From: Escherichia phage REP2
Length of the DNA stretch: 64,000 bases
Direction: 5' to 3' (one strand)
Sequence record: OQ174501.1
In this document: one piece after another, positions 16,748 to 53,540 of the stretch
How positions within the stretch are numbered: the stretch's first letter is position 1
Layout: each line of letters starts with the position of its first letter
Made by a program: the position numbers and the translations under genes
Notes under the pieces: model-generated
What the model was told of the DNA's origin: nothing
Seen by the model: the letters and a program-made list of their open reading frames with translations, nothing else
Databases searched by the model: none

Positions 16748-17053
16748 ATGATGTTATACTCAAAGGCTCGTGAAATTTACGAAACTAAAATTAAAGAAGC
16801 AGTATTTCAGTTCGCAACAACGATGCGATGGACAAATGATTGGGAGTATTCAAAAAATCATAAGAAGCCCATGGTGACAAGAAAGGCTCATATGTTAGTG
16901 TTAATAGACCGTGAGCAGATTAAAGCCCGAGAAGCCCTCCAGAATCATAAAAAGGCTGCCTTTGAATGGTTTATGGATAACACCGCTCCTGAGACTAAGA
17001 AAGCAGTGAGCGCGTGGTTCAGTGGAAAAAATTGTGAAAGAAGTTTCTTTTAG
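16748..17053 (+). CDS. Hypothetical protein
   Basis: SD tggagg; start ambiguous among 16739, 16748 and 16751. Confidence 0.5.
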   Translation: MMLYSKAREIYETKIKEAVFQFATTMRWTNDWEYSKNHKKPMVTRKAHMLVLIDREQIKAREALQNHKKAAFEWFMDNTAPETKKAVSAWFSGKNCERSFF

Positions 17054-17092
17054 TGGTTTACAAGACCGTTCCTCTGTGGTACTATACAACTA
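17045..17092 (+). promoter_or_regulatory. T4 early promoter with flanking inverted repeat
   Basis: GTTTAC 17056-17061, TACTAT 17080-17085; ccgttcctctg ... cggaggaacag arms. Confidence 0.6.
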
Positions 17093-17113
17093 TCAACTAC
17101 GGAGGAACAGAAA

Positions 17114-17641
17114 ATGAACGCTAAAGATATTTTCAACTTGGTAAATTACAACGATGGTAAATTTAAATCTGAAGCACAAAGCAAGTTCTTTAATGACATC
17201 TCAATCGGAGGTGAAATCACTGTTGATGGAGGACAAATTTACAAATCCCGTTGGAATTGGATCGTTATTATCGATGAGATTGGTATTGTAGAAATTTACA
17301 AGAATACGAATAAAAATCGTACATTACACTGGTCTCGTGATACTAACGAACAGTACAAAAAGGATAAAGCATCTAAATTATCTCGTGTAACTCAAGAAGA
17401 TATTGAGTTCATCAAGAAAGATATTTTGATGTATGATAACTTAATTGCTGAAGAGCAAGTTGTTATTGATAAATTTGACGAGATTAAAGCTTCTCGTGAA
17501 ATTCCTGATTTTATGAAAGAATCAGTAAATGAACGATATACTCTCATTTCAGAGCGTATTGAAACTTACAAAAAGCAAAGAGCTGAACGCCAAAATACTC
17601 TTCGGAAGTTTGAAGAACGGTTAAAGACGGTACTCGCATAA
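17114..17641 (+). CDS. Hypothetical protein
   Basis: 175 aa; SD ggagg. Confidence 0.55.
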   Translation: MNAKDIFNLVNYNDGKFKSEAQSKFFNDISIGGEITVDGGQIYKSRWNWIVIIDEIGIVEIYKNTNKNRTLHWSRDTNEQYKKDKASKLSRVTQEDIEFIKKDILMYDNLIAEEQVVIDKFDEIKASREIPDFMKESVNERYTLISERIETYKKQRAERQNTLRKFEERLKTVLA

Positions 17642-17696: not shown

Positions 17697-18101
17697 ATGA
17701 AACAGTTGATAATTAAAAGATTGAATTTATTGATATGTTGTTTATGCGTAGTAATTGCATATGGTTATTACGCAATTAATGATTATATGCATTATAAAGA
17801 TTATGATGTTACTGTAGTTAATACCTTTACAGGAACTCAAGGAAAGGGGTCTAGTTTATCGTTTATTGCTGTATATGAACTTAAAGACGGTTATAGATTT
17901 AGCGAATATATTTCACCAGAGATGTATTCATCAATAGAAAAAGGCGATAATATTACTGTAAGTTTACGTCCTTTCGACGTAAAACAGACATGGTTTGATA
18001 ATATTGTTTGGTTCTTTGGAATGGTATTAGTTCAATCTGTATGCGGTGCTTATATAGTTTTTTCCATCATATTCTGCGTATTTAGTAAAATTGAAAATTG
18101 A
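17697..18101 (+). CDS. Membrane protein
   Basis: N- and C-terminal hydrophobic helices; 134 aa. Confidence 0.5.
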   Translation: MKQLIIKRLNLLICCLCVVIAYGYYAINDYMHYKDYDVTVVNTFTGTQGKGSSLSFIAVYELKDGYRFSEYISPEMYSSIEKGDNITVSLRPFDVKQTWFDNIVWFFGMVLVQSVCGAYIVFSIIFCVFSKIEN

Positions 18102-18112
18102 GTGAGGAAAAT

Positions 18113-19000
18113 ATGTCAGTAGTAATTAATAATGTCAATGCAGTAATTAAATCTTTAGTTAATAAAAAATTGAATGAATGGACTGTACTTCGTCGTGGAG
18201 AGCCAGATAAATTTTTTCATAGATTTAACCCAACTTTAGATTTGAATGTTATTGACAGAGATGTTCATGCAGAAATTTTAGATAAGTTTAAAGTTGATAT
18301 TGGATTTGGATTAGAAAAACATTTACAGCGAACAAACGGGTCTGGAATGGGTTTATCTAATCGCATTATGAAAGCCCTTAATAAAATTGGAGCATTGTCT
18401 CGTATTAATGCAAGTGAAATTCTTCGCAATTATAATAAAGGCTATGATCTTTACGGTCGACTAATGCCGAAATTATCATTTGACCAAATGATCGCAGATT
18501 TGTGGGAAAATCAACGACGATTATTAGCATTAGGCGCTCGATTAGCTAAAGGTCTAGATAAACAAATGATTTTTAAGACCAATAATACAGAAGACCTTAA
18601 ATGCTTTAAATTTAGTATTCGCGGCGATGATTATTATATCAGAGCTCGCTCTACTGATTATGTTAATATGGGGCATCATCTCTGTTTAGCTTTTGAAGTT
18701 TTAAAAGAAGCCGGAACATTAGAATATGTGTCTGGTGCAAAATGCCCTATTGGTTCAAGTTGTATTTTAATTTATCGCCCGGATGAATCCAGTTCAACTA
18801 CATTGCCTACGAAACCTGTACCAGTTCGTAGTAACGAAAAACATTCTGAACAAATTGATTATTTTAATAAACAGATTGAAGAACTGAATATTTCTATTCA
18901 ACAATATGATGATGAAATTTTCAGACTATCTGGACTGAGTAGTAAAGCTAAATCTGAGCGTGAAAAGTTAATTAAAATTGTCGATTTACTTAAATCTTAA
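18113..19000 (+). CDS. Hypothetical protein with C-terminal coiled coil (tandem family, member 1)
   Basis: ATG after gaggaaaat (ORF track starts at 18098); C-terminal heptad-rich tail. Confidence 0.55.
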   Translation: MSVVINNVNAVIKSLVNKKLNEWTVLRRGEPDKFFHRFNPTLDLNVIDRDVHAEILDKFKVDIGFGLEKHLQRTNGSGMGLSNRIMKALNKIGALSRINASEILRNYNKGYDLYGRLMPKLSFDQMIADLWENQRRLLALGARLAKGLDKQMIFKTNNTEDLKCFKFSIRGDDYYIRARSTDYVNMGHHLCLAFEVLKEAGTLEYVSGAKCPIGSSCILIYRPDESSSTTLPTKPVPVRSNEKHSEQIDYFNKQIEELNISIQQYDDEIFRLSGLSSKAKSEREKLIKIVDLLKS

Positions 19001-50299: not shown

Positions 50300-50593
50300 A
50301 TGAAAAAATTTATTTTTGCTACAATTTTTGCTTTAGCTTCTTGTGCTGCTCAGCCTGCTATGGCAGGTTATGATAAAGATTTGTGTGAATGGTCTATGAC
50401 TGCGGATCAGACTGAAGTTGAAACTCAAATTGAAGCAGATATTATGAATATCGTTGAGCGCGATCGCCCTGAAATGAAAGCTGAAGTGCAAAAACAGCTT
50501 AAGTCTGGCGGTATCATGCAGTACAATTATGTTTTGTATTGCGATAAAAACTTCAATAATAAAAATATCGTAACCGAAATCACAGGTGAATAA
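50300..50593 (+). CDS. sp: Spackle (periplasmic lysozyme inhibitor / superinfection exclusion)
   Basis: 97 aa with signal peptide MKKFIFATIFALASCAAQPAMA. Confidence 0.8.
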   Translation: MKKFIFATIFALASCAAQPAMAGYDKDLCEWSMTADQTEVETQIEADIMNIVERDRPEMKAEVQKQLKSGGIMQYNYVLYCDKNFNNKNIVTEITGE

Positions 50594-51230
50594 TATGATT
50601 TATTATATGCACAAAAATCCACCGTTTAAATACGGTAAATTTCCTGATGCACAATGTTATAATATAACGCCGAATGAAAATAATAACGGATATCATATTG
50701 GTGTAATTTTTGTAATTGTTAAAGATAACGAAATCGTTGCCTGGGCAGATTTTAAAGGTACAACATATGATGTTAATCCTGTGCCTTTCACATATTACAA
50801 TATAATGGATTTGGCATATGATTATAATTGGTTTAATCATGACGCGTTGGCTCATATTGAAGGTGTAGGATTTGACATCTCTTATTCTAGCTATTCATTA
50901 TGTCCTATGAGCCGAGCTCACGGTAAAGATGTATCATATCTTTCAATTCGGAAACGTGTAATCTTCAAACGTAGTACAGAGTATGTTGGCGGGCTCTTTG
51001 TTAAAGATAATAAAATAACCCGCATTAGTTATCCTTTAAGTGTAGATCAAAAAGATGTTGATGTTGATTTAGACTTAACTGAAAATAACATTAATCGTAT
51101 TGCTTCTGTGTATTTTGATATCGATGAAAAAATTGTAGTGTGTGGATACGAATTACCAGCAGAAAAACAGTCTAAAGTAAATGTTTCTATTGATGACCAA
51201 ATTTTTAATGCTTTTATGAATAGAGGTTAA
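50586..51230 (+). CDS. 61.2-position protein (AdfA-like anti-DarT candidate)
   Basis: 214 aa; position between sp and 61. Confidence 0.5.
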   Translation: MNNMIYYMHKNPPFKYGKFPDAQCYNITPNENNNGYHIGVIFVIVKDNEIVAWADFKGTTYDVNPVPFTYYNIMDLAYDYNWFNHDALAHIEGVGFDISYSSYSLCPMSRAHGKDVSYLSIRKRVIFKRSTEYVGGLFVKDNKITRISYPLSVDQKDVDVDLDLTENNINRIASVYFDIDEKIVVCGYELPAEKQSKVNVSIDDQIFNAFMNRG

Positions 51231-51231
51231 T

Positions 51232-51396
51232 ATGAAAACATATAAAGAATTTATTAAAGAAGATATGGTTGCTGGAGATTCAGGTGGTAATCTTGAAAAT
51301 ATCTCTACTGGAACAACATCAGGTGCTGTAGTAAATAAAGGTCCTGAACAAATTCCTAAAAAGAAAAAAGAGGAATCTAAAGAAAAAGAAGAGTAA
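51232..51396 (+). CDS. Small protein with Ip-like capsid-targeting N-terminus
   Basis: MKTYKEFIKE|D mirrors the Ip capsid-targeting sequence MKTYQEFITE|A; 54 aa; Lys/Glu-rich tail. Confidence 0.5.
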   Translation: MKTYKEFIKEDMVAGDSGGNLENISTGTTSGAVVNKGPEQIPKKKKEESKEKEE

Positions 51397-51398
51397 AA

Positions 51399-52427
51399 AT
51401 GTCATCAATACCTTGGATTGATAATGAGTTTGCATACCGTGCATTAGCTCATTTACCTAAATTCACACAAGTAAATAATAGTTCAACTTTTAAATTGCGG
51501 TTTAGATGCCCTGTTTGTGGAGATTCAAAAACCGACCAAAATAAAGCTCGTGGATGGTATTATGGTGATAATAATGAAGGAAATATTCATTGTTATAACT
51601 GTAACTATCATGCACCAATCGGAATATATTTAAAGGAGTTTGAACCCGATTTATATCGTGAGTATATCTTTGAAATAAGAAAAGAAAAAGGTAAAAGTCG
51701 TCCAGTAGAAAAACCTAAAGAACTTCCTAAACAACCTGAGAAGAAAATAATTAAATCTCTTCCGTCATGTGTTAGATTAGATAAACTGGCGGAAGACCAT
51801 CCAATTATAAAATACGTAAAAGCTCGTTGTATTCCAAAGGATAAATGGAAATATCTTTGGTTTACAACCGAATGGCCTAAATTAGTTAATAGCATAGCAC
51901 CAGGAACATACAAAAAGGAAATTTCTGAGCCTCGTCTTGTTATTCCAATTTATAATGCTAATGGAAAAGCTGAGTCTTTTCAAGGGCGTGCATTAAAGAA
52001 AGATGCTCCTCAAAAATATATCACCATTAAAGCTTATCCTGAGGCAACAAAAATATATGGAGTCGAACGAGTTAAAGATGGTGATGTATATGTTCTAGAA
52101 GGACCTATAGATTCACTTTTTATTGAAAATGGTATAGCTATTACGGGTGGTCAATTAGACCTAGAAGTTGTTCCATTTAAAGATAGACGAGTGTGGGTTT
52201 TAGATAATGAACCTCGTCACCCTGACACTATCAAGCGAATGACTAAATTAGTTGATGCAGGAGAAAGGGTTATGTTTTGGGATAAATCTCCCTGGAAATC
52301 AAAAGATGTCAATGATATGATTAGAAAGGAAGGTGCAACCCCTGAACAAATTATGGAATATATGAAAAATAATATTGCCCAGGGGTTGATGGCTAAAATG
52401 CGGCTATCTAAATATGCTAAGATTTAA
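51399..52427 (+). CDS. 61: DNA primase gp61
   Basis: 342 aa; zinc-binding CPVCGDS...CYNC, TOPRIM-type core. Confidence 0.93.
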   Translation: MSSIPWIDNEFAYRALAHLPKFTQVNNSSTFKLRFRCPVCGDSKTDQNKARGWYYGDNNEGNIHCYNCNYHAPIGIYLKEFEPDLYREYIFEIRKEKGKSRPVEKPKELPKQPEKKIIKSLPSCVRLDKLAEDHPIIKYVKARCIPKDKWKYLWFTTEWPKLVNSIAPGTYKKEISEPRLVIPIYNANGKAESFQGRALKKDAPQKYITIKAYPEATKIYGVERVKDGDVYVLEGPIDSLFIENGIAITGGQLDLEVVPFKDRRVWVLDNEPRHPDTIKRMTKLVDAGERVMFWDKSPWKSKDVNDMIRKEGATPEQIMEYMKNNIAQGLMAKMRLSKYAKI

Positions 52428-52624
52428 ATTAACCCAACTAAAGCAAATGCTAAATCTACAAATGTATCAAGAGTAACTACTGGAATATTAACACCATGCG
52501 CAATTGCAATTGGTGATAAAATAAAGTTCCAGAGTAAAATTCCTACCATAGCAGAAATAGTAAAAGCTATACGTTTCTTATTACCTTTGATGGCATTAAC
52601 AAGTGCCATTAATTTTTGTACCAT
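52424..52624 (-). CDS. Small membrane protein (66 aa)
   Basis: Minus-strand ORF with AGGAGG 5 nt upstream of its ATG; hydrophobic helices; convergent with gene 61. Confidence 0.5.
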   Translation of the reverse strand: MVQKLMALVNAIKGNKKRIAFTISAMVGILLWNFILSPIAIAHGVNIPVVTLDTFVDLAFALVGLI

Positions 52625-52695
52625 ATGTCCTCCTTATTGCTTTATATATTTATTGTATAATTAATCTACTAACCCATGAATTGAAAGGAAAAATA

Positions 52696-53214
52696 ATGGC
52701 TTACTTTAACGAATGTAGTCAACTGATTGAAGGCGCTGATAAAGCTCAAAATGAATATTGGGATATTCTCGGTGATGAAAAAGACCCGCTACAGGTTATG
52801 CTTGATATGCAGAAATCTTTACAGATTCGTTTAGCTAAAGATAAACCTGAATATAATCGTCATCCTGATGATTTGGCTACTGCCGGTGAAGTTGTTGATT
52901 GGTTGCGTAATCAGAAAGATTATATTGATGATGAATTCCGTGAACTTCTGACTTCTCTTGGTGGTATGAGTAATGGTGAAAAAGACGCATCTGCTGTATG
53001 GAAACCTTGGAAGTCGCAGCATGGTGAACGTCGTGAAACTCTGATTACTGATTTGTCTCCGCAAGACCAACTGGAAATTAAGTTTGAAATGATTGATATT
53101 CTCCATTTCGTTCTGAACATGTTCCAAGGTCTTGGTCTTACAGCAGAAGAAATCTTTAAACTTTATTACCTGAAAAATGCTGAAAATTTCGCACGTCAAG
53201 ACCGAGGTTATTAA
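52696..53214 (+). CDS. 56: dCTPase/dCDPase gp56
   Basis: 172 aa from ATG 52696; MAYFNECSQLIEGADKAQNEYWDILGDEKDPLQVMLD matches T4 gp56 as I recall it. Confidence 0.88.
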   Translation: MAYFNECSQLIEGADKAQNEYWDILGDEKDPLQVMLDMQKSLQIRLAKDKPEYNRHPDDLATAGEVVDWLRNQKDYIDDEFRELLTSLGGMSNGEKDASAVWKPWKSQHGERRETLITDLSPQDQLEIKFEMIDILHFVLNMFQGLGLTAEEIFKLYYLKNAENFARQDRGY

Positions 53215-53244
53215 CAGCTCGTCTTAAAAGCCGCGAGAATTTAT

Positions 53245-53252
53245 TATAAATA
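53245..53252 (+). promoter_or_regulatory. T4-type late promoter (TATAAATA)
   Basis: Exact TATAAATA about 30 nt upstream of soc. Confidence 0.6.
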
Positions 53253-53282
53253 ATCATGTAATTTAAATAAAAGGAGAATTAC

Positions 53283-53540
53283 ATGGCTAGTACTCGCGGT
53301 TATGTTAATATTAAAACATTTGATCAAACAGTTGATGGTGGTACAATTCAGGGTAAAGAAATTTCTGTAGCTTTCCCTCTTTATTCTGATGTTCACAAAA
53401 TTTCTGGTGCTCATTATCAGACATTCCCTTCTGAAAAAGCAGCATATTCTACAGTATATGAAGAAAATCAGCGTACTGAATGGATCACTGCTAATGAAGG
53501 TCTTTGGACTGTTACACCTACACCAGGTGTAGGTGGTTAA
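53283..53540 (+). CDS. soc: Small outer capsid protein Soc
   Basis: MASTRGYVNIKTF...ISVAFPLYSDVHKISGAHYQTFPSEKAAYSTVYEENQRTEW matches T4 Soc as I recall it. Confidence 0.9.
   Translation: MASTRGYVNIKTFDQTVDGGTIQGKEISVAFPLYSDVHKISGAHYQTFPSEKAAYSTVYEENQRTEWITANEGLWTVTPTPGVGG

Follow-up and report, generated by a model that had tools for sequence, protein, structure and literature searches.

A predicted late membrane-protein gene conserved beside primase gene 61, and an optional dam cassette, in T4-like phages

The window analyzed here is a 64,000-nucleotide stretch of the genome of Escherichia phage REP2 (GenBank accession number OQ174501.1), which shares 99.93% identity across all 64,000 bases with Escherichia phage REP3 (OQ174502.1, positions 88855 to 152854, reverse complement). 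The phage is a T4-like coliphage, and the window covers its early/middle region. On the plus strand, genes 41, dmd, 61.4, sp, 61.2, 61.1, and 61 are followed by a small minus-strand open reading frame (ORF) and then by genes 56 and soc. Gene 61 (51399 to 52427, plus strand) encodes the DNA primase, gene 56 (52696 to 53214, plus strand) encodes dCTPase/dUTPase, and soc lies at 53283 to 53540 on the same strand. The homing-endonuclease gene segF, which is found between genes 56 and soc in T4, is absent from the window at 53215 to 53282; soc is located directly 3' of gene 56 and is preceded by a perfect late box, TATAAATA, at 53245 to 53252. In phage RB51 (locus 2575 to 2931), an additional 61.2-like ORF, RB32ORF033c, lies between 61.2 and 61.1, and the window (50586 to 51396) is without it, which represents another small indel in the accessory-gene block from dmd to 61.

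The small ORF (52424 to 52624, minus strand) encodes a 66-amino-acid (aa) product, MVQKLMALVNAIKGNKKRIAFTISAMVGILLWNFILSPIAIAHGVNIPVVTLDTFVDLAFALVGLI, with a GRAVY value of +1.25. It converges on gene 61 with a 4-nt overlap, and the TAA stop codons of the two genes overlap inside the palindrome TTTAAA. A Shine-Dalgarno sequence, AGGAGG (52634 to 52629, minus strand), is located 4 nt (ACAT) 5' of the ATG, the start region reading TAAGGAGG-ACAT-ATG on the minus strand. These features agree with the original prediction of a hydrophobic 66-aa minus-strand ORF convergent with gene 61 in a gap of about 270 bp between genes 61 and 56, which measures 268 bp with gene 56 starting at 52696; the perfect AGGAGG described there was also recovered, although its spacing to the ATG had been put at 5 nt. 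The length of the ORF is by itself weak evidence, since longer antisense ORFs occur frequently by chance in the AT-rich DNA of the window, and the reality of the ORF was judged from its conservation instead. On this ground, the proposal that a small hydrophobic protein is genuinely encoded here holds, with homologs in 692 phage records and with signs of purifying selection.

Of these 692 records, which were matched in a tblastn search with the 66-aa protein, 686 cover at least 80% of the ORF. The identical protein has been deposited many times, including in RB51 (ACP30950.1), as RB68_032, and in REP3 (WCA46078.1); it is annotated in RB51 as "RB32ORF030w, similar to RB69ORF029w" and in REP3 as a hypothetical protein. 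The ORF matches the profile of PHROG 2024, a family of conserved hypothetical proteins of T4-like phages, with an E value of 1.5e-31 (ORF residues 2 to 66 against profile positions 1 to 65 of 65). It is a member of the family that includes RB32ORF030w and RB69ORF029w, with the same position and strand and no distinguishing difference. Neither the T4 nor the T2 reference annotation lists the family. When 1.84 billion representative proteins were searched with a profile (threshold E value of ≤0.001), only nine matches of 60 to 72 aa were retrieved; a few are partial or variant copies of the Tequatrovirus protein, and the four distant full-length matches also belong to PHROG 2024 and to no other PHROG. 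Both the small ORF, as a conserved hypothetical gene, and the lack of dam next to it are already on record. In the literature on ORF names, T4 small proteins, ribosome profiling, and maps of antisense and late start sites, no mention of the ORF was found.

The placement of the ORF is shared by at least six genera of Tevenvirinae, in all of which it lies on the strand opposite to its neighbors, on the gene 56 side of the primase gene and convergent with it. This arrangement was observed in Mosigvirus G53, Gaprivervirus DK-13, TH40, and SP18, Karamvirus CkP1, Jiaodavirus KP1, Kanagawavirus KLB31, and metagenomic T4-like contigs, and the homologs all match PHROG 2024. The stretch between the ORF and gene 56 varies in content; it may be empty or hold dam, either alone or with a further ORF, and in other phages it holds a mazG-like gene or a group of two to three small ORFs. 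Judged from this synteny, the stretch acts as a cargo slot, and the small ORF is the fixed neighbor of the 3' end of gene 61. In phage DK-13 (locus 2762 to 2871), the region immediately 3' of the intact small ORF retains part of a second, divergent member of the family (..SLWNLLVVPIAATQGVHLPQVTTEHIH..) that lacks a start codon and adjoins a homing-endonuclease gene inserted before the primase gene; in the same region of TH40, the remnant is more decayed. The two remnants suggest that alleles may have been replaced at this locus.

The substitution pattern among the homologs indicates that the small ORF is protein-coding and under purifying selection. Between genera, synonymous sites are near saturation (pS, 0.56 to 0.74), pN is approximately 0.34 to 0.40, and dN/dS ranges from 0.13 to 0.48; within Tequatrovirus, dN/dS is ≤0.15. 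Differences at codon positions 1, 2, and 3 number 30, 13, and 41, respectively. The frame and a length of 60 to 69 aa are retained, and the motif WN(F/Y)...P.A..HG..P..(D/E) persists at approximately 30% identity. In its general layout, a basic cluster is followed by a hydrophobic helix with an invariant W-(N/D)-(F/Y) and, five residues on, by a proline, after which come A-x-x-(H/N/Y/K)-G, (L/I/V)-P, and an acidic residue.

A T4-type late promoter box, AATAAATA, which is the A(-13) variant of TATAAATA, lies at 52654 to 52647 on the minus strand, 22 nt 5' of the ATG, so that the ORF carries a TATAAATA-type box at -13 to -6 as do the gp55/gp33/gp45-dependent late genes of T4. According to Geiduschek and Kassavetis, A(-13) is the commonest variant, found in 9 of 50 listed T4 late promoters (PMC2988020), and Nolan et al. 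reported that position -13 is poorly conserved across T4-like phages (PMC1524935). In 12 homologous loci that were compared, GGAG(G) precedes the ATG in every one, and an exact ATAAATA, belonging to the late-promoter box NATAAATA, is found 12 to 33 nt (usually 14 to 22 nt) upstream of the ATG in 11; the twelfth locus, that of CkP1, has ATTAAATA instead. Because ATAAATA is short and AT-rich, its significance comes from its conserved position rather than from its mere occurrence. The full arrangement ATAAATA-N8-16-GGAG-N3-9-ATG occurs once in the 64-kb window, at the small ORF, against 0.08 occurrences expected. In addition, early and middle transcripts of T4 share one polarity, and late transcripts may have either (PMC2988020); the small ORF, with a polarity opposite to that of all early and middle transcripts, could therefore only be a late gene. 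We infer that it is expressed late, from its own gp55-type promoter. The late transcript would start approximately 6 nt downstream of the box (GATAAATA in T4), near position 52641 of the minus strand in the window.

A junction of 71 bp (52625 to 52695) lies between the small ORF and gene 56, measured from start codon to start codon. On its plus strand lies a predicted MotA-dependent middle promoter of gene 56 (52636 to 52661), composed of ATTGCTTTA, which we take to be a MotA box from its likeness to the MotA-box consensus, an 11-nt spacer, and TATAAT. This promoter is homologous to T4 P(M)16.53 (annotated in X01416), the transcript of which primes oriA (note in NC_000866). The late box of the small ORF lies on the opposite strand within the spacer of the middle promoter, and the junction thus consists of two divergent, temporally distinct promoters. 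A sigma-70 promoter for the small ORF was also considered; the one candidate, a 9/12 match at 52722 to 52693, lies inside gene 56 and was set aside because dam separates the ORF from gene 56 in T4, where the upstream sequence is consequently different.

The basic cluster of the protein consists of K13, K16, K17, and R18 and, by the positive-inside rule, would place the N terminus in the cytoplasm. An AlphaFold2 model built on a 23-sequence alignment (mean pLDDT of 75.5, moderate confidence) contains helices at residues 2 to 12, 16 to 42, and 52 to 63 and a loop at 43 to 51. Most likely, the product is a single-pass inner-membrane protein with a transmembrane helix at about residues 19 to 42, which carries the invariant W-(N/D)-(F/Y) and the proline kink, and with a short acidic amphipathic C-terminal helix in the periplasm. 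Residues 46 to 66 of the Tequatrovirus protein are hydrophobic enough for a second membrane span, with a Kyte-Doolittle mean of 1.7 to 1.9 in the C-terminal segment, and a two-span hairpin is a less likely alternative. The single-pass topology is preferred over the hairpin because distant homologs have a short C-terminal tail of charged, amphipathic character (for example, LEKAIQYIMLGGF and IEQLRAVMLFVVGI) and because the C-terminal helix in the model has only 12 residues. The T4 product would yield peptides such as IAFTISTMVGILLWNFILSPVAIAHGVNIPVVTLDTFVDLAFALVGLI and is hard to detect by tryptic digestion.

The same N-terminal features could be read as a cleavable signal peptide of 42 residues, releasing a secreted acidic amphipathic peptide of 24 aa (HGVNIP...GLI). 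The layout resembles the n, h, and c regions of a signal peptide, with the basic cluster and a hydrophobic core, a proline at -5, and A-x-A at -3/-1 before H43, and most homologs have a small residue at -1. However, with approximately 24 residues, the hydrophobic stretch is longer than expected of a cleaved signal and has the length typical of a signal anchor. One homolog has phenylalanine at -1, and Mosigvirus has leucine at -3. Cleavage is therefore considered improbable.

Searches for a function returned little beyond the family itself. Pfam and NCBIfam gave no match even at E values up to 10, the sole result of a sequence-profile search of PDB was a match to NqrE attributable to chance (E value of 2.5), and Foldseek searches against PDB and BFVD found only PHROG 2024 proteins or insignificant helical matches. 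Other small membrane proteins encoded by phages include the T4 antiholin RI, Imm, Sp, and the class II holins and pinholins, with none of which a similarity in sequence or fold was found. In RI, a signal-anchor-type N-terminal helix precedes a periplasmic part. The genes for Imm and Sp are early, in contrast to the small ORF with its late signals. Holins carry a charged C-terminal domain, which the small-ORF protein lacks.

A holin or pinholin, that is, a late small membrane protein that permeabilizes the inner membrane, would fit the late promoter, the small size, the hydrophobicity, and the presence of one or more transmembrane domains, as judged from hydropathy and from the helix modeled by AlphaFold2 at 16 to 42, and the homolog in phage OE5505 bears the label "Holin," the single such label. 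However, the C terminus (...DLAFALVGLI) is hydrophobic and uncharged rather than a hydrophilic, highly charged cytoplasmic domain, and the charges are N-terminal, with the basic cluster at 13 to 18. The ORF is not placed in a lysis cassette either; in REP3, it lies at 100231, not adjacent to holin gene t (74864), the spanin genes (approximately 50.7 to 51.3 kb), and the endolysin gene (148116). REP3 already possesses holin T, RI, RIII, and spanins, and Foldseek matches to holin-labeled proteins have nonsignificant E values above 3. A hole-forming function is thus very improbable. The strong Shine-Dalgarno sequence and the predicted late promoter would argue for programmed expression rather than for repression by a cis- or trans-encoded antisense RNA, as known for the small hydrophobic toxic peptides of type I systems.

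The region could alternatively be maintained as regulatory DNA or RNA, with the ORF itself being untranslated, either as a terminator for gene 61 or as a late promoter of transcripts antisense to the primase mRNA. On the plus strand, a hairpin followed by a U-run (52587 to 52617) lies within codons 3 to 13 of the small ORF, approximately 160 nt downstream of gene 61, and is a candidate intrinsic terminator of gene 61 transcripts; it has an 11-pair stem followed by TTTTTG, with a dG of -12.4 kcal/mol and a z score of -3.9, and a terminator is annotated at the corresponding spot in Yersinia phage fPS-65. On the minus strand, a search after the small ORF found no terminator, so the late transcript would be expected to continue antisense into gene 61, and some T4 sites are known to be transcribed from both strands (PMC2988020). 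However, visual inspection of the Mosigvirus and Gaprivervirus sequences did not reveal the hairpin, which thus cannot explain the wider conservation of the ORF, and an Rfam search returned only noise. Furthermore, the dN/dS values of 0.13 to 0.45, the codon-periodic substitutions, and the endurance of the frame, length, Shine-Dalgarno sequence, and amino acid motif in DNA saturated with change leave only a slim chance that the ORF is untranslated. An antisense role could exist alongside the coding function.

According to the original prediction, dam lies between genes 61 and 56 in T4 and is missing from the present phage, and both points are confirmed, the former by the T4 record and the latter by searches of the window and the whole REP3 genome. 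With T4 Dam as the tblastn query, the best E values were 0.12 for the window and 0.31 when the complete REP3 genome was searched, and no methyltransferase is listed in the REP3 annotation. The methyltransferase motif [DNS]PP[YFW] was present only in stop-to-stop segments of 88 to 309 aa, none of them methyltransferase-like and some identifiable as genes for other products. The accompanying idea that the ORF occupies the place of dam or is special to dam-less phages is contradicted by T4 and T2, which have the ORF and dam together. The order in T4 is 61, small ORF, dam, and 56, whereas that in the window is 61, small ORF, and 56. In the T4 genome (AF158101), the small ORF is found at 17738 to 17935 (plus strand), gene 61 at 17935 to 18963, and dam at 16846 to 17625, the ORF sitting in the 309-bp stretch that separates gene 61 from dam. 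Its product is 97% identical to the window protein in T4 and 95.5% identical in T2 (LC348380, 16642 to 16839). The stretch is left blank in AF158101, NC_000866, and the 1984 entry X01416, and likewise in the T2 reference. The protein variant exactly as encoded by T4 was found only in Logan assemblies and is without an NCBI protein accession. In Yersinia phage fPS-65, the small ORF is followed by a 186-aa ORF and then by dam. In the replacement reading, dam gave way to the ORF as new cargo, a toxin-like, holin-like, or exclusion factor confined to genomes without dam. This reading draws on the location of the ORF in the gap where T4 has dam, on its small and hydrophobic product, and on the "Holin" label of a 91%-identical protein in one UniProt entry. 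It is hardly credible, since T4, T2, and fPS-65 each have both the ORF and dam, which already refutes it, and it is opposed by the synteny of the ORF in genera with other or no cargo in the slot; the toxin, holin, and exclusion-factor labels that had been offered found no support beyond hydrophobicity.

The arrangement in the window is common among related phages. The 61/56 junction was matched by 504 records, 322 of which are contiguous and dam-less like the window, and a Dam at least 90% identical to that of T4 was found in 182 records; the two numbers sum to 504 but come from separate searches, and their complementarity is presumed. On these counts, approximately 64% of Tequatrovirus-type records appear to be without dam, and the lack is the majority state and no anomaly. 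From the start codon of the small ORF to that of gene 56, T4 has 952 nt and the window 71 nt. When junction sequences were compared, the ATATTTAT box and the promoter of gene 56 were the only elements common to T4-type and dam-less junctions. The T4 cassette, encoding a GATC N6-adenine methyltransferase, has the same flanks, with the small ORF and gene 61 at one end and the middle promoter of gene 56 at the other, and its approximately 0.9 kb is what the window lacks. We read dam as an optional cassette of approximately 0.9 kb in a variable slot between the small ORF and gene 56.

The best explanation of the locus, to which we assign a probability of roughly 0.85, a figure that excludes any specific function, is that the small ORF is a real, conserved gene for a late membrane protein next to an optional dam slot. 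Under this explanation, the ORF would be transcribed late, on the strand opposite to all neighboring early and middle genes, and abundantly translated into a 60- to 69-aa single-pass inner-membrane protein. The conserved buried asparagine and the adjacent loop may mediate helix-helix association in the membrane, and such association might modulate an envelope process, for instance the timing or inhibition of lysis, which is a weakly supported guess; the protein would not form holes itself. The slot holds the dam cassette of approximately 0.9 kb in T4 and T2, and in the window, as in most Tequatroviruses, it is empty and reduced to the 71-bp two-promoter region. A more far-reaching combination, in which the ORF is at once a late gene that is nearly universal in enterobacterial T-even phages but has been overlooked, a missing component of an envelope process, and the source of an antisense transcript to gene 61, is unlikely as a whole. 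If it were true, studies that rely on the canonical T4 and T2 annotations, in which the gene is not listed, would have passed it over, and the envelope process could be, for example, lysis-inhibition or superinfection signaling or membrane-associated assembly.

The main outcome is a correction, in that nothing unusual took the place of dam in this phage. The locus also exposes an annotation gap, as the T4 and T2 references omit a conserved gene under purifying selection, with late signals, that is found in at least six genera, and studies built on these references would not have addressed it. A small late membrane protein so widely conserved probably has a real role in the envelope of the infected cell.
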